From Thermoleophilia bacterium (GTDB lineage: Bacteria > Actinomycetota > Thermoleophilia > UBA2241), in the NCBI GenBank assembly GCA_016933475.1, contig JAFGAW010000009.1, forward strand, positions 1 through 60,003: a stretch of 60,003 nucleotides of DNA. The letters are read 5' to 3'. A program made the position numbers and the translations under genes. Positions 49,392 to 57,829 of this stretch are shown one piece after another (position 1 is the first letter of the stretch; every line of letters begins with the position of its first letter). The notes under the pieces were generated by a model. The model had not been told where the DNA came from and searched no databases. It saw nothing but the letters and a program-made list of their open reading frames with translations.

Positions 49392-50258
49392 CTACGCCAT
49401 CACCGCCCGGGCGTCGATCAGGTTCTTGCTGAGGCCCAGCTCCTTGTCGCCGAGGCCGATGGCGCGGCCGACGAGTTGGCTGAGGAAGAGTACCGGCAGG
49501 CCGACCCAGGCGCTGTCCTTGCGGGCGATCTCGCTCTGGCGGCCGTCGAGGTTGGCCTGACAGAGCGGGCAGGCGACGGCGACCGCGGCGGCGCCGCAGG
49601 CACGGGCGTCGCTCACGATGCGCGCGACGAGATCGTCGACGATGCCCTGCTCGGTGAGTGCCAGCGCGGCGCCGCAGCAGTCGGTCTTGTAGTTCCAGTC
49701 GATCGCCTCGCAGCCGAGCGTCTCGACGACGGCCTCCATGCGGGTCGGGTACTCGGGGTCGTCGGCTTGGGTGACGTCGGGCGGGCGCGTGAGCAGACAC
49801 CCGTAGTAACAGGCTACCTTGAGGCTCTTGAAGGGGCGCTTGACCTTGGCGGCGAGCGCCTCGAGGCCGACGGCGTCGTGGTAGACATCGACCAGGTTCT
49901 GCACCGTGACGCCGCCGTCGTAGCCGCGCCCGACCACCGACTTGACGTCGTCGGCGACCGCCGGGTCCTGCATCTCGTGGGCGCCCGTCTTGAAGCGGCT
50001 GTAGCACGCCGCACAGGGGACGGCGACGGCGTCGAGCTTCATGTCCTTCTCGACCTTGGCGAGCTCGTTCACAGGCAGCGCCAGGGAGAGCAGGCGGTTG
50101 ATGGAATGGGCCGCCGTGTTGCCGCAGCACTCCCAGCCGGGGATCTCCTCGAGCGTCAGCCCGAGCTCCCGGGCCGTGGCCCTGAAGCTGGCGTCGAACT
50201 CGGCGGAAGTGCCGTGCAGCGAGCAGCCGGGGTAGTAGGCGAGGGTCTTGGGGCTCAT
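49392..50258 (-). CDS. hdrB: Heterodisulfide reductase subunit B-like (two CCG domains)
   Basis: YYPGCSLHG...GWECCGNTAAH; YYGCLLTRP...KTDCCGAALAL; ACPLCQANLD. The start overlaps the hdrC stop (ATGA). Stop is TAG. Confidence 0.9.
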   Translation of the reverse strand: MSPKTLAYYPGCSLHGTSAEFDASFRATARELGLTLEEIPGWECCGNTAAHSINRLLSLALPVNELAKVEKDMKLDAVAVPCAACYSRFKTGAHEMQDPAVADDVKSVVGRGYDGGVTVQNLVDVYHDAVGLEALAAKVKRPFKSLKVACYYGCLLTRPPDVTQADDPEYPTRMEAVVETLGCEAIDWNYKTDCCGAALALTEQGIVDDLVARIVSDARACGAAAVAVACPLCQANLDGRQSEIARKDSAWVGLPVLFLSQLVGRAIGLGDKELGLSKNLIDARAVMA

Positions 50259-50830
50259 CCCTTACCCCCTTCGTGCTGCTTTGCTTCGGTGAGGCTCTCG
50301 GCGGTCTTGACCATGCGCTTCATGGCGTCGGTGTCGCCCTTCTTCAGGGTCGGGTTGATCTTGCCCTTGAGAAGCATCTTCGGCCCGAGCGAGAGCCACG
50401 CGAGGACGCCCTTGGGCCGGTGCAACGCGTCGCGGGCGATGAGCTCGATCTCCCACATGCGGCCCCAGCGGGCGAACGAGTCGTAGTTGTACTTGAACAT
50501 CTGCGCCGACGGGGCGTCGGGGTGCACCTTACCCTCGCGGCGGGCGATGATCTTGAGCTCGTCCATGATGCCGGCGATGTCGATGCCCTGAGGGCAGCGC
50601 GTGGTGCACGTCTGACAGCCGGTGCACAGCCAGATGAACTTGTCCTCGAAGATCATGTCGTACTGCCCGAGCTGGACGGCGCGCATGATCTGCGCCGGGT
50701 GCATGCCGGCCTGGTCGGCCACCGGGCAGCCCGCCGTGCAGCGCTTGCACTGGTAGCAGAGGTATGGGTTCTCGGCACAGCCGGCCCCCACCTTGGTGGC
50801 GAGGACGCCGCTTGGACTGCAGGTCGCCAT
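50255..50830 (-). CDS. hdrC: Heterodisulfide reductase subunit C-like (2x[4Fe-4S])
   Basis: CYQCKRCTAGCP and CTGCQTCTTRCP. ATG 50830 lies 5 nt after GGAGG. The track ORF begins two codons earlier, at GTG 50836. Confidence 0.9.
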   Translation of the reverse strand: MATCSPSGVLATKVGAGCAENPYLCYQCKRCTAGCPVADQAGMHPAQIMRAVQLGQYDMIFEDKFIWLCTGCQTCTTRCPQGIDIAGIMDELKIIARREGKVHPDAPSAQMFKYNYDSFARWGRMWEIELIARDALHRPKGVLAWLSLGPKMLLKGKINPTLKKGDTDAMKRMVKTAESLTEAKQHEGGKG

Positions 50831-50839
50831 CCCCACCTC

Positions 50840-51784
50840 CTAGGCCACGGCCGGACGAGGCATGAGGCCGGCCGCCTCGACGATCTCGGGCACCGCGGGC
50901 TCCCACTCGATAGCCATGATGTGGACGCCGGCGACACCCTCGATCTCGGTGAACTCCTTGATCATCTCGACGGCGATCTTCTTGCCTTCGGCCTGCGATG
51001 CCGGCCCCTTCTCGACGCCCGCCATGCGGTCGACGATGGCCTGGGGCACGTCGATGCCGGGCACGAACTTCTGCATGTAGCGCGCCCCGCCGACGCCCTT
51101 GAGCGGGGTGATGCCGGCGAGGATCTTGATCTCCTTGTGCAGCCCGAGGGCGCGCACCTCCTCCATCCACTTCTTGAACTTGGGGACGTTGAAGATGCAC
51201 TGCGTCTGGACGAAGTCGGCGCCTGCCTCGACCTTCTTCTTGAGGCGCAGGGCGCGGAACTCGAACGGGTCGGCGAAGGGGTTCTCGGCACAGCCGATGT
51301 AGAGCTCGGGCGCGACCGGCATCTCCTCGCCGCACTGGAACTTCTTGTCGTCGCGCATGTCCTTGTACATGCGGATCAGGTTGAGCGAGTCGAGGTCATG
51401 GACGCCCTTGGCCTCGGGGTGGTTGCCGAAGCTCATGTGATCGCCGGTGAGGCAGAGGACGTTCTTGATGCCCAGCGTGTAGGCGCCGAGGATGTCGGCC
51501 TGCATGGCGAGCCGGTTACGGTCGCGGCAGGTCATCTGGAGGATGGCCTCGACCCCGTTCTGCTGCGCGGTGACGCCGGATGCCATGGAGCAGACGCGGA
51601 CCACGGCGGTCTGGTTGTCGGTGATGTTGACGGCGTCGACGTAGCCCTTGAGGATCTTCGCCTTCTCCTCGATGACGCCGACGTCGGCGCTCTTCGGCGG
51701 GCCGCACTCGCCGGTCACGGCGAACTTGCCCGCCGCGAGGACCTTCTCGAGGTTGGAGCCGGCTTTGAATCCGTTCTCGGTCAT
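50840..51784 (-). CDS. metF: Methylenetetrahydrofolate reductase, acetogen/MetFV type
   Basis: MTENGFKAGSNLEKVLAAGKFAVTGECGPPK...VNITDNQTAVVR...CLTGDH...AENPFADP...KKKVEAGADFVQTQCIF.... 314 aa. ATGA overlap with metV. Stop is TAG. Confidence 0.9.
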   Translation of the reverse strand: MTENGFKAGSNLEKVLAAGKFAVTGECGPPKSADVGVIEEKAKILKGYVDAVNITDNQTAVVRVCSMASGVTAQQNGVEAILQMTCRDRNRLAMQADILGAYTLGIKNVLCLTGDHMSFGNHPEAKGVHDLDSLNLIRMYKDMRDDKKFQCGEEMPVAPELYIGCAENPFADPFEFRALRLKKKVEAGADFVQTQCIFNVPKFKKWMEEVRALGLHKEIKILAGITPLKGVGGARYMQKFVPGIDVPQAIVDRMAGVEKGPASQAEGKKIAVEMIKEFTEIEGVAGVHIMAIEWEPAVPEIVEAAGLMPRPAVA

Positions 51785-52464
51785 ACCGGCTTCGCCTCCT
51801 CGCGCACCATCTTGCGTGGGCCGCCGGAGCTCGACTTGCTCCAGTCCTTCGGCGGCCGCAGCTCCAGCATCAGCTCCTCGCGCCCCTGGGCCTTCAGCCG
51901 CTCCCAGATGAGGTGCCAGGCGCACTCGATCTCTTCCTTCTCGGGGGTCGTGACCTCGCAGAGGCCGTCGTGCGACCCGCCGCAGGGCCCATTCATGAGG
52001 CTCTTCGAGCAGCGCACGACGGGGCAGATGCCGCCGGTGAGCCCGATGCGGCAGTCGCCGCAGGCGGCGCAGCGCTCGAGCCAGACGGCGTGCTCCTGCG
52101 GCATGCCCAGCATGTTGGTGTTGACGGCCGGCATCACGAGCTTGGGGGCGAACTTCTCGGCCATGCTCTGGATGCCGATGCCGCAGGCCATGCTGAGCAC
52201 GACGTCGGCCGCCTCGACCTTCTCGGCGATCATGTCGAGGTACTCCCACTCGCACTGGCGGATCGCGGCGGTGTGCTCGACCTCGACCTCGCGGCCGTCG
52301 GCCTGGGCCTTCATCCTCAGTTCGGTCGCGAGGATCTCGGCCTCCTTCTCGCCGCCGGTCATGCAGATGGCGACGCAGGTGTCGCAGCCGGCGACGAGGA
52401 TCTTCTTCTTGCCGGAGACGAGGTCGAGGATCTCGTCGAACGGCTTGCGTTCAGCTGTGATCAT
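51781..52464 (-). CDS. metV: MetV, zinc-finger/FeS partner subunit of MetF
   Basis: KILVAGCDTCVAIC..., CAACGDCRIGLTGGICPVVRCSKSLMNGPCGGSHDGLCEV. Confidence 0.85.
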   Translation of the reverse strand: MITAERKPFDEILDLVSGKKKILVAGCDTCVAICMTGGEKEAEILATELRMKAQADGREVEVEHTAAIRQCEWEYLDMIAEKVEAADVVLSMACGIGIQSMAEKFAPKLVMPAVNTNMLGMPQEHAVWLERCAACGDCRIGLTGGICPVVRCSKSLMNGPCGGSHDGLCEVTTPEKEEIECAWHLIWERLKAQGREELMLELRPPKDWSKSSSGGPRKMVREEAKPV

Positions 52465-53105
52465 TCGGCGGGTCCCTTCTCGGAAGTCGCGACGGGCGGG
52501 GGTGTGTCGTCTGGCGGCGCGGCTGAGTCGGCCGCCTCGTCGGCGATGGCGATGTGCTTGACGGCGTCGCGGACGAGACTGTGCGGCGACACGCCGTGTC
52601 GCCGCAGCGGGTTAGGCCCGAGCAGTCTGATGCGTTCGGTGAACTCGTTCGCCACACGGGCGAACTCGGGACCGTCGGCCGACGACATGTTGTACATCTC
52701 GATACGCTCGGGGTCGGCGCCGACTTCGGCGAGGAGACCCTTGACCAGCGCCACGCGCTTGCGCGCCCAGAGGTTGCCCTTGAGGAAGTGACACTCGCCC
52801 TCCATGCACCCGGCGGCGTAGACGCCGTCGGCGCCTGACTCGATGGCGTGCAGCAGGTGGATCACCTCGAGCTTGCCGGTACACGGCAGCTTGATGATGC
52901 GGATGGTCGCCGGGTACTGCAGGCGCAGGCTGCCGGCCAGGTCGGCGGCGGCGTACGCACAGTAGTGACAGGCGAACACGATGATCTCGGGCTCGAAGTC
53001 GGGGTCGACCGGCCGTCTCGGCTCCTGCTCGACTGCTGTGGCGTCGGCATCGACCGTGGCTTCCTGAGGCGGAGCCTCCACGGCGGCGTTCGTCTCGTCG
53101 GCCAC
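52461..53105 (-). CDS. mvhD: MvhD-like [2Fe-2S] electron-transfer protein (hydrogenase delta-subunit family)
   Basis: IIVFACHYCAYAAADLAG...IIKLPCTGKLEVIHLLHAIESGADGVYAAGCMEGECHF. Confidence 0.85.
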   Translation of the reverse strand: MADETNAAVEAPPQEATVDADATAVEQEPRRPVDPDFEPEIIVFACHYCAYAAADLAGSLRLQYPATIRIIKLPCTGKLEVIHLLHAIESGADGVYAAGCMEGECHFLKGNLWARKRVALVKGLLAEVGADPERIEMYNMSSADGPEFARVANEFTERIRLLGPNPLRRHGVSPHSLVRDAVKHIAIADEAADSAAPPDDTPPPVATSEKGPAE

Positions 53106-53106
53106 G

Positions 53107-56100
53107 TCAGCTCACCTCCATGAAGAGCGCCTCTTCCTTGGCGAAGATCTGGTTCTCGGTGTAGTGATGCAGGGTGATCGCCTTGACCGGACACTCTGCC
53201 GAGCAGATGCCGCAGCCCTGACAGGCGGCCGCCTCGATGGTGGCCTTCTTGGTCTCCGGGTCGATCACGGGCACCTCGTACGGACAGACGCGGACGCAGG
53301 TGAGGCAGGCGGCACACTTGTCCGCGTCGACCTCGGCCACGACGCCGCCGGCCTTGAGAGCCGGTTTGGCCAGGATCGTGGCCGCCCGGCCGGCGGCCGC
53401 GTACGCCTGGCTGATGGCCTCGTCGATGCCCTTCGGGTAGTGCGCCGAGCCGCACAGGAAGATGCCCTCGCTGCCGAAGTCGACCGGACGCAGCTTGGGG
53501 TGCGCCTCGAGGAAGAAGCCGTCTCGCGTGAGGGGCACCTTGAGCAGCTTGCTGAGATCGTCGGCGCCGTCGGACGCTACCGCCGGTGTGGCGAGGACGA
53601 GGAGGTCGAGCGGCAGTGTCATGTCGCGAGCCAGGAAGGGGTCGCGGTACGCGACCTCGAGACGATCTCCCTCGACACTCACCTTCGGTTTGTCGTCCTT
53701 GTCGTAGCGTGTGAAGACGATGCCGAGCTCGCGCGCCTTCGTGTAGTACTCCTCGAGGAAGCCGAAGGTACGTACCTCCTTGTACCACATGTACACCGGG
53801 CGGTCGGGGTCCTGCTCCTTCAGCGCGATGGCGTTCTTGATGCTCTGCTGGCAGCAGGTCCGTGAGCAGTACGGCCTCTCTTCGTCGAGCGCCCCCGCGC
53901 AGAGGATGAAGCCCACGGCGCGCGCTTCGGCGACCTTCTGGTCGTTCTCCTTGAGCATGCGCTCGAGGTCCATGCCGGTGACGATGCTCGGGCTGGTGCC
54001 CAGTCCGTAGATCTCCGGGCGCTCCTCCTGCGAACCCGTGGCCACGACGACGACGCCGTGGTCGATCGGCGTCCGCTTGCCGTCCGCGGCCTCGATGACG
54101 CTGGAGAAGTTGCCGATGAAGCCGTGGAAGTCGACGACTTCGCTCTGCAGGTGGATCTTGACGTTGGGGTTGTCGACGAGTCGTTGCTCGAGCTCGGCCA
54201 CGAACGTCGTCGCGTCGCCGCCGCGGATCGTCGGGCCCAACTCGAGGACGTGGCCGCCCAGCTTGGAGCCGCGCTCGACGAGGTAGGCCTCGTGTCCCAT
54301 CTCGGCGAGGGCCAGTGCGGCGGTCATGCCGGCGAGGCCGCCGCCGACGACCAGTGCCGAGTGCGTGAGCGGTACGTCGATCCGGTAGAGCGGCTCCAGG
54401 TACCGGGCCCTCGCGACCGCCATGCGGACGAGCTCCTTGGCCGCTTCGGTGGCCTTCTGCGGATCGTCCTTGTGCACCCACGACCCCTGGTCCCGGATGT
54501 TGGCCATCTCGAAGAGGAAGGGGTTGACGCCCGCCTCCCGCAGGGTGTCCTGGAAGATGGGCTCGTGCGTGCGCGGCGTGCAGCTCGAGACGACGAGCCG
54601 GTTGAGCTTCTGGTCCTGCACGGTGTCGCGCATGAGCTGCAGCGCGTCGTTGCCGCACGCGTACATGACGTCGGCGGCGAAGGCCACGCCGGGGAGCGTC
54701 TTGGCGTACTCGGCGACGTCCTCGACGTCGATGACGCCGGCGATGTTGGAGCCGCAGTGACAGACGAAGACGCCGACGCGCGCGTCCTCGTCGGTGGTGT
54801 CGCGCTCCGGCGGGTACTCCTTCTCGACGGTGAGCGTGCCGCGCGAATCGGCAAGGCGGGTCATGACCTGCGCGGCGGCCCCAGAGGCCTGCGCGACTGA
54901 GTCGGGGATGTCCTTGGGCTCACCGAAGGGGCCGATGACGAGGACGCCCTCGCGGCTCGTCGCCATCGGCTCGAACTCCTCCAGCTTGCAGAAGCCGTGG
55001 CGGTTGAGCGCGATGCCGAGCCGCCCGGCCGCCTCCTGGCCCTTGCGTGCGGGCTCGAGGCCGGCGGACAGGACGACCAGGTCGTACTCGCTGGTGCGCA
55101 TGCGCCCCTGCTCGTCCTCCCACGTGATGCTGAGGTCCTTCGTCTTCGGGTCTTCCTTGATGGTGGACGGGCGCGAGCGGATGAACTTGATGCCGAGCGC
55201 CTGACCGCGATGGTAGAAGTCGTCGAACCCCTTGCCGTGCGCGCGCATGTCCATCATGAAGATCTCGGGCTTCGCGTCGGGCACGTGGTCGACGGTCATC
55301 ATCGCCTGCTTGTTGGCGTACATGCAGCAGACGCTCGAGCAGTACTCGTGCGACTGGTCGCGCGAGCCGACGCACTGGATGAAGGCGATACGTGTCGGGT
55401 GGCTGCCGTCGGAAGGCCGCTTGATGTCGCCCATGCTCGGCCCCGACGAGCTCATCAGGCGCTCGTACTCGAGAGCGCTGAGGACGTTCGGGTACCGACG
55501 GTAGCCGTACTCGCTCGCCTTGCCGGGGTCGTGGAGGTCGAAGCCGGTGGCCATGACCACGGCGCCGACGTCGAGGGTGACCTCGCTGTCGCGGTCGTCG
55601 TGGAGCAGGGCGCCGGGCCCGCAGGCGCGGACGCACTCGAAGCACTCGGAGCAGACGGCGCAGTCGAGGCAGCGCTTGGCCTCGGCGACGGCCTGCTCCT
55701 CGGTGAAGCCCGTGTTGACCTCGTCCCAGACGGTCTTGCGCGCGGCGCCCGCCAGCTGGGGCATGGGCATGCGCGCCATCACCTCGGTCTTGGCGAGCAC
55801 TTCGTCGTCGGGTTTGGCCTCGTCCATGAGCTCGTCCCAGACGGGCACGAGCTCCTCGCCGCGGAGGTGGTTGTGGATGCTGCGCGCAGCACGACGGCCC
55901 GCGGCGACCGCCTCGATGGCGGTCCAGGGTGCGCTCGCCGCGGCGTCGCCGCCGGCGAACACGCCGGCCCGGCCGGTCGCATGGGTCTTCTTGTCGGCGA
56001 CGATCTGGCCGCGCTCGACCTCGATGCCCGAGGCGCCCTGCGCGAAGTCGTCGACCATGCTCTGGCCGATGGCGAAGATGATCGTGTCGCCGTCCAGGTC

Positions 56101-57549
56101 GTGCTCGGTGCCGTCGAGCCGTACGGGCGGCCGCCAGCCGCGAGCATCCGGCTCGCCCAGCGCGCACGAGCTGAACGTGACGCCGCAGGCCTGACCGTTC
56201 TGGTCGAGCTTGATCGCGTCGGGCATGCAGGAGCAGTTGTAGAGGATGCTCTCCGCCAGGCCCTCCTCGATCTCCTCGTCGGAGGCCGGGATCGTCGCGT
56301 CGTCCTCGATGCAGTTGATGACGACCTGCTCGGCTCCGAGGCGCAAGGCGGTGCGGCCGGCGTCGAAGGCGACGTCGCCGCCGCCGATGACGATGACCTT
56401 CTTGCCGATCTCGACCGGTTCGCCGGCGGTGGCCTTGTAGAGGACGCTGACGGCGTCCAGCACGTTGGGCGCGTCGGCGCCGGGGATCGGGAGCGTACGG
56501 CCGCCCTGCAGGCCGACGGCCAGGTAGACGGCCTTGTAGCCGTCGTCGAGCAGCGCGTCGACGGTGAAGTCGACGCCGCACTTCTTGCCGCACTGCAGGT
56601 CGACGCCGAGCGCGAGGATGCGATCGACGTCCTGCTGCAGGGCGGTCTTGGGCAGGCGATACTCGGGGATGCCGAAGCGCAGCATGCCACCCGGCTCGGC
56701 CTTGCTCTCGAACACGGTGGTCTGGTAGCCGAGCAGGGCGAGCTCGCGGGCGGCCGTCATGCCGCTCGGTCCGGCCCCGACGACGGCGACCTTCTCGTCG
56801 TACTTGACCTCGGCCTTGCCGGGCAGCGGGACGTTGGCGTTGGCGAAGTCGGTGACGAAGCGCTTGAGGCTGCGGATGGCGATGGGTTCGTCGACTTCAC
56901 CGCGGGTGCAATCGACCTCGCAGTTGGCTGTGCAGACGCGCCCGCACACGGCCGGGAAGGGGTTGGGCTCGCTGGCGACCGTGTACGCCTCGGCGAACCG
57001 GCCCTCGCGGATGAGAGCCACGTAGCCCTGCGCCGACGTCGCCGCTGCGCAGGCGCGCTTGCACGGCGAGTGACCCTTCTTGGTCACCGCGTAGGTGCTG
57101 GGGATGGCCTGCGGGAAGAGCTTGAAGATCGCCGTGCGCGTGCCGAGCTCCTCGTTGTACGTGTCCGGGACCCTGACCGGACACACGGCGACGCACTCGC
57201 CGCAGCTCGTGCACTTGTCGGGGTCGACGAACCTCGCGTGCCGGAACACCTTGGCCTTGAAATCGCCGGGAGCACCCTCGAGCTCGACGAGCTCGGAGTT
57301 GGTGATGGTCTCGATGTTGAGGTGTCGCCCGATCTCGGTCAGCTTCGGCCCCATGATGCACATGGCGCAGTCGTTGGTGGGGAAGACCTTGTCGAGCTGC
57401 GACATGTGCCCGCCGAGGGCCGGGGCCTTCTCGACGAGGTAGACCTTGTAGCCACCCTCGGCCAGGTCGAGAGAACACTGGATGCCGGCGATTCCTCCGC
57501 CCACGACAAGGGCGGCGCCGGTCGACTTGGGTGGACGGTCCGACGGCAT
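53107..57549 (-). CDS. hdrA: Giant HdrA-like flavoprotein (1480 aa): an HdrA module interrupted by a GltD/NfnB-like NAD(P)H oxidoreductase module, followed by a second HdrA module and a 2x[4Fe-4S] ferredoxin domain
   Basis: ALVVGGGIAGIQCSLDLAE...FPTNDCAMCI (HdrA N-terminus). VCGRVCTANCEVDC, VAVVGAGPSGMTAA, VIVIGGGDVAFDAG, GVFAGGD (GltD-like). IQCVGSRD...CSSVCCMY, VFVCHCGSNI, LVVSSCTPRTHE (HdrA core). ALVVGGGLAGMTAAL...CSRTCCQQ (second HdrA). CAACLTCVRVCP...CQGCGICSAECP. I chose ATG 57549, 7 nt after GAAGGAG. Confidence 0.85.
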   Translation of the reverse strand: MPSDRPPKSTGAALVVGGGIAGIQCSLDLAEGGYKVYLVEKAPALGGHMSQLDKVFPTNDCAMCIMGPKLTEIGRHLNIETITNSELVELEGAPGDFKAKVFRHARFVDPDKCTSCGECVAVCPVRVPDTYNEELGTRTAIFKLFPQAIPSTYAVTKKGHSPCKRACAAATSAQGYVALIREGRFAEAYTVASEPNPFPAVCGRVCTANCEVDCTRGEVDEPIAIRSLKRFVTDFANANVPLPGKAEVKYDEKVAVVGAGPSGMTAARELALLGYQTTVFESKAEPGGMLRFGIPEYRLPKTALQQDVDRILALGVDLQCGKKCGVDFTVDALLDDGYKAVYLAVGLQGGRTLPIPGADAPNVLDAVSVLYKATAGEPVEIGKKVIVIGGGDVAFDAGRTALRLGAEQVVINCIEDDATIPASDEEIEEGLAESILYNCSCMPDAIKLDQNGQACGVTFSSCALGEPDARGWRPPVRLDGTEHDLDGDTIIFAIGQSMVDDFAQGASGIEVERGQIVADKKTHATGRAGVFAGGDAAASAPWTAIEAVAAGRRAARSIHNHLRGEELVPVWDELMDEAKPDDEVLAKTEVMARMPMPQLAGAARKTVWDEVNTGFTEEQAVAEAKRCLDCAVCSECFECVRACGPGALLHDDRDSEVTLDVGAVVMATGFDLHDPGKASEYGYRRYPNVLSALEYERLMSSSGPSMGDIKRPSDGSHPTRIAFIQCVGSRDQSHEYCSSVCCMYANKQAMMTVDHVPDAKPEIFMMDMRAHGKGFDDFYHRGQALGIKFIRSRPSTIKEDPKTKDLSITWEDEQGRMRTSEYDLVVLSAGLEPARKGQEAAGRLGIALNRHGFCKLEEFEPMATSREGVLVIGPFGEPKDIPDSVAQASGAAAQVMTRLADSRGTLTVEKEYPPERDTTDEDARVGVFVCHCGSNIAGVIDVEDVAEYAKTLPGVAFAADVMYACGNDALQLMRDTVQDQKLNRLVVSSCTPRTHEPIFQDTLREAGVNPFLFEMANIRDQGSWVHKDDPQKATEAAKELVRMAVARARYLEPLYRIDVPLTHSALVVGGGLAGMTAALALAEMGHEAYLVERGSKLGGHVLELGPTIRGGDATTFVAELEQRLVDNPNVKIHLQSEVVDFHGFIGNFSSVIEAADGKRTPIDHGVVVVATGSQEERPEIYGLGTSPSIVTGMDLERMLKENDQKVAEARAVGFILCAGALDEERPYCSRTCCQQSIKNAIALKEQDPDRPVYMWYKEVRTFGFLEEYYTKARELGIVFTRYDKDDKPKVSVEGDRLEVAYRDPFLARDMTLPLDLLVLATPAVASDGADDLSKLLKVPLTRDGFFLEAHPKLRPVDFGSEGIFLCGSAHYPKGIDEAISQAYAAAGRAATILAKPALKAGGVVAEVDADKCAACLTCVRVCPYEVPVIDPETKKATIEAAACQGCGICSAECPVKAITLHHYTENQIFAKEEALFMEVS

Positions 57550-57829
57550 AGGCGAACTCCTTCGACGAGCGAGCGACTGGTCCATAAGCGTGGGTGACCG
57601 CAGACTCCACGACCCACCGGGATATGAGACCAGTATAGTCGAGCGCTCGCGCACCCGTCCACAAGCCCATGGCGCCTCGAGTGAGCCTCGTCAAGGGTTT
57701 GCGTGTGTACGGCGACTCCATTGGTTCCCCTCACCTGCGGGGCCGCGGCAGCGCCTATCATTGACGCGTGAGGCGCACCCCGGCGGCCGGCGGGGCCGCG
57801 CGAGCGAGTGTGTGAAAGGCAGGCCCGTG

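Follow-up and report, generated by a model that had tools for sequence, protein, structure and literature searches.

We wanted to investigate which enzyme is encoded by six tightly packed genes, hdrA-mvhD-metV-metF-hdrC-hdrB, of an uncultured Thermoleophilia bacterium, and in which direction this enzyme would work in the cell. The genes lie on the minus strand of a stretch of 60,003 nucleotides (the window), which is contig C54 of a metagenome-assembled genome (GCA_016933475.1; 2.49 Mb in 295 contigs, 80% complete, 5% contaminated, approximately 71% G+C). Judging from the sequence, the operon probably encodes an Hdr-type methylene-tetrahydrofolate (methylene-THF) reductase, MTHFR, in which MetF and MetV would be joined to a large HdrA, MvhD, HdrC and HdrB. 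This enzyme would be linked to NAD(P)(H) and would work mostly in the oxidative direction on methyl groups of methylated amines.

All six proteins scored well over the curated family cut-offs of Pfam and NCBIfam. The same six subunits form the MetFV-HdrABC-MvhD enzyme of Moorella thermoacetica, encoded in one transcription unit (Mock et al. 2014, as described in PMC9430772 and PMC7325909). The initial annotation of this DNA had recognized the Moorella composition in another gene order, and every feature that could be tested at the level of sequence agreed with it, including the large HdrA. The Moorella order is hdrCBA-mvhD-metVF, while here it is hdrA-mvhD-metV-metF-hdrC-hdrB. The hosts differ as well: Moorella is a Firmicute, whereas the present host is a high-GC member of Thermoleophilia represented by a metagenome-assembled genome. 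The order found here is identical to the hdrA-mvhD-metVF-hdrCB of a Hakuba serpentinite actinobacterium of clade UBA1414 (Merino et al. 2020, PMC7325909). That bacterium belongs to the same phylum and has co-occurring Wood-Ljungdahl genes, but it represents another class and another habitat, and methylamine methyltransferases are not a topic of that paper. Sporomusa ovata is a methylotroph that also has an Hdr-type MTHFR, HdrCBA-MvhD-MetVF, in which contacts of MetVF with Hdr/MvhD were detected by pulldown (PMC9430772). However, its HdrA is smaller (101 kDa), with no GltD NAD(P)H module and with the bifurcation signature at a single flavin; the enzyme is in part associated with membranes, and a link to quinones was proposed (PMC9430772).

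The HdrA of M. thermoacetica (162.8 kDa, 1487 amino acids, aa) has extra N-terminal ferredoxin and thioredoxin reductase (TrxR)-like domains (Kremp et al. 2022, PMC9430772), and the protein encoded here has 1480 aa; the likeness was judged against this published description. We observed that the NCBIfam model HdrA2 matched the protein over 4 stretches (960.9 bits), together with the GltD-like model NF009410 (523 bits) and Pfam Pyr_redox_2 and Fer4_20. The first TrxR-like module, which binds flavin adenine dinucleotide (FAD), is composed of aa 10-158 and 629-847. It is split by a GltD/NfnB-like module (aa ~160-640), inserted inside the inserted ferredoxin domain between its two cluster motifs. 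Residues 160-640 aligned to NfnB/GltD (4YLF_B, 1.4e-75), and the insert has FAD and NAD(P)H Rossmann motifs at 258 and 389. Further, an MvhD-like domain (aa 921-1060), a second TrxR-like module starting at aa 1065 and a C-terminal 2x[4Fe-4S] ferredoxin domain (aa 1405-1460) were identified; this C-terminal part has no inserted ferredoxin domain. The same plan was described for Moorella HdrA: its N-terminal TrxR module is split by a GltD insertion, and MvhD-like, TrxR and ferredoxin domains without the inserted ferredoxin make up its C-terminal part (PMC9430772).

Alignment to HdrA of M. thermolithotrophicus (PDB 5ODC_A) placed aa 10-158 on residues 143-291 of the chain, aa 629-847 on 289-511, aa 921-1074 on the MvhD-like N-domain (2-155) and aa 1326-1478 on 498-652. 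There are four dinucleotide-binding GxGxxG/A motifs (at 17, 258, 389 and 1069) and four CX2CX2CX3C motifs. Both TrxR-like modules carry the Glu/Lys pair that marks bifurcating flavins, for which E356/K409 of M. thermolithotrophicus HdrA served as the reference: E696/K747, placed by alignment to 5ODC_A, and E1196/K1238, placed by aligning module 1 to module 2. The corresponding Moorella pairs, E696/K750 and E1204/K1246 (PMC9430772), lie at nearly the same positions. By these motifs HdrA has one predicted NAD(P)H site and three predicted flavin sites, two of them with the bifurcation marker; eight [4Fe-4S] clusters, three FAD and one NAD(P)H were given for Moorella HdrA (PMC9430772). We rejected the idea that the 1480-aa protein is a new fusion, because Moorella HdrA has the same plan and more than 100 near full-length homologues occur in metagenomes (58-83% identity, the named ones mostly from Thermoleophilia or Actinomycetota). 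Since the description of Moorella HdrA matches, the giant HdrA is a hallmark of a known enzyme. The protein also corresponds to the HdrL of Desulfobacterium autotrophicum and Syntrophobacter fumaroxidans, in which a large HdrA is likewise joined to GltD-like domains that bind NAD(P)H, with mvhD as the next gene; these loci of sulfate reducers are, in contrast, without metVF, and a role in DsrC reduction or sulfite reduction was proposed for them (PMC2702500, PMC5947623).

The remaining subunits agreed with this assignment. MetF was far below the cut-offs of the canonical NAD(P)H equivalogs (84.6 bits for TIGR00676, cut-off 293.7; 49.4 bits for PRK09432, cut-off 382) and matched MetF proteins of the PDB only at 1e-8 to 1e-12. 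Further, metF is not a stand-alone gene, as it overlaps metV by 4 nt, and therefore we rejected a canonical NAD(P)H-dependent MetF of the E. coli or Thermus type. An RnfC2-MetVF enzyme of the Acetobacterium woodii type was rejected too, since the operon has no RnfC-like gene and it is the GltD-like insert in HdrA that provides the NAD(P)H module. MetV has 13 Cys, some of them in the conserved blocks GICPxxRCxK and LxNGPCGG. In MvhD the core (aa 38-168) is conserved and Cys 46, 49, 75, 100 and 105 are intact; its tails of approximately 35 N-terminal and 45 C-terminal residues are of low complexity (Ala/Glu/Pro-rich) and poorly conserved among relatives. Because the first ~35 residues are poorly conserved, the GTG start at 53105 is uncertain and the real one is perhaps downstream. 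HdrC has CX2CX2CX3C motifs at 27-37 and 71-81. HdrB keeps both copies of the CCG motif of non-cubane [4Fe-4S] clusters, with the overall pattern CX31-39CCX35-36CX2C (CX31CCX36CX2C at 12-85, the second at 150-233), and its best solved relatives are methanogen HdrB proteins (~3e-34). No solved structure matched MetV in sequence searches of the PDB, and there was no MetFV-Hdr complex among the PDB matches of HdrA, MetF and HdrB. Prediction of complexes of MetV with HdrB, HdrC or the MvhD core gave a median ipSAE of 0.22 (mark 0.32), which speaks neither for nor against binding.

We analyzed the layout of the genes and the signals around them (Table 1). The six open reading frames (ORFs) run from 57549 to 49392 with successive junctions of +1, -4, -4, +3 and -4 nt; the widest gap becomes 9 nt if hdrC begins at the alternative ATG at 50830. 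Third-position GC of the six ORFs was 0.86-0.95, therefore we regard them as coding frames, and the three junctions of -4 nt suggest translational coupling. A scan for consensus promoters upstream of hdrA gave 1 site, compared with 0.4 expected. The hairpin behind hdrB had a free energy of -51.8 kcal/mol, while shuffled sequences gave -30.5 +/- 3.1 (z = -6.96; 0 of 200 shuffles were equally stable). There is no U-tail at this hairpin, and it is probably a terminator or a 3'-end stabiliser that works without a U-tract. Given the tight junctions, the one promoter-like site and the one terminal hairpin, the hdr and mvhD genes and metVF would form one transcription unit. The initial annotation had described six minus-strand genes with overlaps or gaps of 1-9 nt, closed by a 17-bp hairpin; the junctions turned out to be as tight or tighter, and the stem is perfect.

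Table 1. Genes and signals of the six-gene operon, given in the direction of transcription with positions in the window.
Feature	Position	Strand	Basis or remark
Promoter-like site, TGGACG-18 nt-TATACT	57632..57661	-	Consensus scan; consensus match only
Ribosome-binding site, GAAGGAG	just 5' of hdrA ATG 57549	-	Sequence reading
hdrA, large HdrL-like form, 1480 aa	53107..57549	-	NCBIfam, Pfam, PDB alignments, motifs
mvhD, [2Fe-2S] electron-transfer subunit, 214 aa	52461..53105	-	Pfam FlpD 1.7e-46; NCBIfam VhuD 154.7 bits
metV, Fe-S small subunit of MetVF-type MTHFR, 227 aa	51781..52464	-	Pfam PF12225 5.5e-33
metF, flavin-binding catalytic MTHFR subunit, 314 aa	50840..51784	-	Pfam MTHFR (PF02219) 4.6e-45
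hdrC, 2x[4Fe-4S] subunit, 193 aa	50255..50836	-	TIGR03290 74.9 bits; Fer4_17, Fer4_8
hdrB, 288 aa	49392..50258	-	Pfam CCG x2; TIGR03288 140 bits
Perfect 17-bp GC-rich hairpin, GUGC loop	49320..49357	-	Begins 35 nt past hdrB TAG stop

Further, we wanted to see which other genes of one-carbon metabolism accompany the operon. In the 80%-complete genome metF was the sole MTHFR-family match. Contig C89 (L001, L002) carries a gene for LarC-like nickel insertion, fhs, fchA (a cyclohydrolase of the FTCD_C type), folD and, at the contig end, a NuoE-like [2Fe-2S] gene; this cluster is an acetogen-style methyl branch. Other contigs encode an 893-aa FdhA with a NuoG-like N-terminus (C86), CooS with a CooF-like neighbour (C290; more CooS fragments lie at contig ends) and an AcsE/MtqA-like methyl-THF:corrinoid methyltransferase (C193). 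The Wood-Ljungdahl-type methyl branch that had been claimed initially is thus supported, with the lone MTHFR match in the operon and with other genes of C1-THF metabolism elsewhere in the genome.

The window encodes mtbB and mttB, each with one in-frame TAG, a corrinoid protein and two MttB paralogs without pyrrolysine (Pyl), so the trimethylamine (TMA) and dimethylamine (DMA) methyltransferase genes reported before are confirmed. In the whole genome we detected 7 Pyl-type mtbB matches and at least 28 MttB-family matches (for example G000:C202:22320-23693, C151:4863-6230 and C248:9881-11221). Genomes of the same Thermoleophilia family (2-3.7 Mb) contain 1-19 mtbB matches each, nearly all of those listed with a single in-frame TAG, and most of them have at least 28 MttB-family matches. 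This expansion of corrinoid methyltransferases is comparable to that of 'Candidatus Formimonas warabiya' DCMF, a Wood-Ljungdahl anaerobe of Peptococcaceae with 96 methylamine methyltransferase genes, 23 of them with Pyl (PMC6778437). Although DCMF is a Firmicute, the logic of its lifestyle is that of the Thermoleophilia family. Actinobacteriota of the genus RBG-16-64-13 express Pyl-type mttB and mtbB in peat (PMC10805028). The description of the present case as "unusual" anaerobic methylotrophy was therefore overstated, as Pyl-using methylotrophic Actinobacteriota (PMC10805028) and this gene order in Actinobacteria that have a Wood-Ljungdahl pathway (PMC7325909) were published before. Earlier work has thus described the system and its giant HdrA, the order of its genes in Actinobacteria and methylotrophy in Actinobacteriota of this kind.

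We analyzed the distribution of the operon. Of the 24 family genomes, 22 had MetV, and the family loci that were fetched had the same six-gene order and a full-length large HdrA. For a wider scan, a MetV alignment was compared with one genome per GTDB species, and the flanks of the best 80 MetV loci, which include neither Moorella nor other cultured acetogens, were searched with tblastn. Many Chloroflexota (Anaerolineae and others) and one Acidimicrobiia locus had the identical six-gene order, while the Moorella order hdrCB-hdrA-mvhD-metVF was present in loci titled Syntrophobacterales, Syntrophorhabdus, Deltaproteobacteria, Planctomycetaceae and Victivallales. Other families of the class have simpler GltD-like-MvhD-like-MetVF arrangements or MetVF alone, and in these families metVF is often located 3-5 kb from acsB.

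A quick IQ-TREE analysis of MetF (SH-aLRT support) placed the protein of the window in a family clade (100*), inside a clade of 62 rows (99*) that includes Chloroflexota operons of the same order. These clades nest within a long-branched clade of MetV-partnered MetF proteins (100*). A check for an acetogen-type clade had been proposed initially; the protein falls among MetV-partnered, Hdr-embedded MetF proteins, in a tree that contains no characterised acetogen sequence.

Several variants of the locus were seen. In L038 (G029), L043 (G039), L111 and L125 (Ca. Brocadia) a stand-alone GltD/NfnB-like protein with a ferredoxin tail precedes metV-metF and there is no HdrBC; most of these loci also have a short MvhD-like protein ahead of metV-metF, and in G029 and G039 this context lies 5 kb from acsB. 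Such MetVF contexts suggest that entry of NAD(P)H via a GltD module is their common theme. In Chloroflexota (L056, L069, L076, L080, L084, L086) an additional double-HdrA gene, which lacks GltD and is followed by a separate mvhD, lies directly upstream of the large hdrA, and the arrangement hdrA'-mvhD'-hdrA(large)-mvhD-metV-metF-hdrC-hdrB occurs in many loci. A filter for hdrB (high-scoring segment pair of at least 250 residues, no stop, at most 4 kb from metV) was failed by 54 fetched loci, e.g. L056-L060 of Chloroflexota; in many of them hdrB was absent or the locus was cut short.

These results allow us to propose how the enzyme may work. The flavin site of MetF would interconvert CH2=THF and CH3-THF, with MetV as its Fe-S partner, and a chain of Fe-S clusters would be supplied by HdrC, HdrB, MvhD and the ferredoxin domains of HdrA. 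Electrons would pass between NAD(P)(H) at the GltD-like module and the CH2=THF/CH3-THF couple (-200 mV) at MetF. Flavin-based bifurcation or confurcation could bridge the 120-mV gap between the two couples; the third partner that this requires, with a lower or a higher potential, may be ferredoxin, as suggested for Moorella, or the menaquinone pool, as suggested for T. phaeum and S. ovata. We infer the direction of catalysis, the electron bifurcation and the third redox partner from the genes described above. The oxidative direction seems most likely, because no other MTHFR was found in this genome, which is rich in methyltransferases for TMA, DMA and quaternary amines, and the methyl groups of amines enter as CH3-THF. 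Corrinoid-borne methyls derived from amines would be oxidised, in part or entirely, via FolD/FchA, Fhs and FdhA to CO2. The remaining ones would be directed, as in methylotrophic acetogens, to carbon monoxide dehydrogenase/acetyl-CoA synthase (CODH/ACS) and acetyl-CoA where this enzyme is present. On other substrates the enzyme may run in the reductive direction in the Wood-Ljungdahl methyl branch, and it presumably also supplies methionine synthesis, as a second MTHFR was not detected.

The operon is retained in genomes in which ACS was not found, namely G021 (98% complete), G005 (97%) and G003 (95%), and therefore its role there is not tied to acetyl-CoA synthesis. This retention suggests that an oxidative or anabolic role is the conserved one. 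We put forward, tentatively and as a possibility we would not bet on, that the enzyme of this Thermoleophilia family runs mainly in reverse, as a methyl-THF dehydrogenase, and is the single gateway through which methyls, removed from TMA, DMA and quaternary amines by dozens of methyltransferases with and without Pyl, are oxidised to CO2 or formate. Members in which ACS was not found would then live by an anaerobic methylotrophy that is neither acetogenic nor methanogenic. The energetics of such a gateway might rely on confurcation by the three-flavin HdrA, or on its link to menaquinone and fumarate.

Several observations weigh against a mostly oxidative, NAD(P)(H)-linked enzyme serving methylamine use. 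Oxidation of methyl-THF with NAD(P)+ is endergonic, confurcation consumes reduced ferredoxin and no Rnf was found in the five genomes searched, therefore the source of reduced ferredoxin is unexplained. For Moorella and Sporomusa, bifurcation and the physiological donor or acceptor remain unproven, and the Hdr and MetVF parts of S. ovata form no stable complex (PMC9430772). Two genomes, G021 and G019, retain the operon with almost no methylamine methyltransferases. In the congener G012 (95% complete, 7 contigs; L044, G012:C5:685000-704900) the six genes were recovered in approximately 20 tblastn pieces with metF truncated, the flanking genes and mtbB copies were largely intact and there was no other good MTHFR match. 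This broken operon reflects either decay or a local assembly error; if the breakage is real, it speaks against an indispensable function of the operon in methylamine use. Finally, the initial annotation had placed the operon "next to" the Pyl-dependent methylamine genes. The two are about 25-30 kb apart (about 25 kb here), and the spacing, 27-30 kb, is kept only among congeners. We rejected this proximity as a functional link and give it no weight: the conserved spacing is plain synteny, and a genome of 2.5 Mb that holds at least 35 such genes would be expected to show it by chance.

According to another explanation, which we consider unlikely, electrons of CH3-THF would be passed via MvhD or HdrBC to menaquinone instead of NAD(P)+/ferredoxin, and menaquinol would be reoxidised by the SdhCDAB-type enzyme of the window, working as a fumarate reductase, or by another quinol oxidoreductase; the NAD(P)H module would then be used only for confurcation in the reductive direction. 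It agrees with the membrane association, the MTHFR activity linked to quinone or anthraquinone-2,6-disulfonate (AQDS) and the NAD+-independent oxidation of methyl-THF reported for T. phaeum and S. ovata (PMC6895022, PMC9430772). Of the sdhCDAB operon mentioned in the initial annotation, sdhC (cytochrome b), sdhA and sdhB were confirmed in the window, and like Rnf in the genomes searched, heme-copper oxidase was not found, either in this genome or in two congeners 95-97% complete. However, the operon has no quinone-binding subunit, the sdh genes lie ~31 kb away and are ordinary genes of the tricarboxylic acid cycle, and the supply of fumarate would be unexplained. Conservation of the NfnB-like NAD(P)H module also speaks for pyridine nucleotides as a true substrate.

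We also regarded as improbable a purely reductive, acetogenic enzyme, used only for conversion of CO2 to methyl as in Moorella on H2/CO2, with amine methyls going straight to CODH/ACS. The presence of CooS, FdhA and fhs-fchA-folD would fit it, and so would the state of the ACS genes. When acs and cooS were looked for, as the initial annotation had proposed, CooS and an acsA fragment were found, while the 80%-complete genome gave no match to AcsB/CdhC or CdhD. The fragment is the 3' part of cooS/acsA on contig C177 (1315 bp), with 88% DNA identity to the stretch just upstream of acsB in congener G002 (L027, G002:C18:105052-108510). We did not accept a true absence of acsB, because C177 stops exactly where G002 runs on into acsB; the apparent lack of ACS is probably an assembly break. 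ACS was detected in 8 of 12 congeners and in 15 of 24 family genomes. However, acetyl-CoA synthesis from methyls needs reducing power for conversion of CO2 to CO, and methylotrophic acetogens oxidise approximately 1 methyl in 4 via the same enzyme. The persistence of the operon in the three high-quality genomes without detected ACS also speaks against an exclusively reductive use.

A housekeeping enzyme that supplies methionine and S-adenosylmethionine synthesis of the lineage, with no catabolic role, seems very improbable. It would be consistent with the operon being the sole MTHFR found and with its retention in G021 and G019, where methylamine methyltransferases are few or absent. However, a six-subunit enzyme with an estimated ~17 Fe-S clusters would be costly for a step that a single MetF performs elsewhere, and its characterised or proposed relatives all belong to catabolic C1 pathways. 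Demethylation of amines onto THF yields CH3-THF directly, so the reductase would not be needed for methionine.

The chance that an unrelated Hdr-like system (sHdr, DsrC-reducing HdrABC/HdrL or Flx-Hdr) merely lies beside metVF is practically negligible: a disulfide substrate is conceivable with both CCG motifs kept in HdrB, and HdrL-type proteins have the other proposed roles mentioned above, but metV and metF sit among the hdr genes with 4-nt overlaps, this interleaving is conserved across several bacterial phyla, and among the six genes there is one hdrCB pair but neither lbpA nor dsrC nor flx. In sequence the Hdr subunits are like those of methanogen-type HdrABC and unlike sHdr (for HdrA, 624 bits with the methanogen protein 5ODC_A compared with 139 bits with sHdrA, 6TJR). 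The sulfur-oxidising sHdr locus, hdrC1B1A-hyp-hdrC2B2 with lbpA, has a short sHdrA with a single FAD, two hdrCB pairs and genes for lipoate-binding proteins; it was rejected for the 1480-aa HdrA, the one hdrCB pair and metVF inside the operon. Neither of the two findings that would have refuted the initial reading, a genome without other C1-THF genes or Hdr subunits of the sHdr kind, was made.

In summary, the annotation itself is ordinary, and the moderately interesting question is whether the enzyme is a reverse-running gateway of anaerobic methyl oxidation in Thermoleophilia. Of all steps in the methyl branch of the Wood-Ljungdahl pathway, that of the Hdr-type MTHFR is understood least. The host is an uncultured soil actinobacterium with dozens of methylamine-demethylating genes and an intact operon. 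Its lineage is a natural case in which the oxidative direction should dominate, since no second MTHFR was found and methyls enter as CH3-THF, and the enzyme is conserved both with and without ACS. The family, together with the abundant Chloroflexota homologues that have the identical operon, offers sequences for expression and cryo-electron microscopy. It may also help to read metatranscriptomes of soil and peat, where Actinobacteriota are active on methylamines that would otherwise feed methanogens (PMC10805028).

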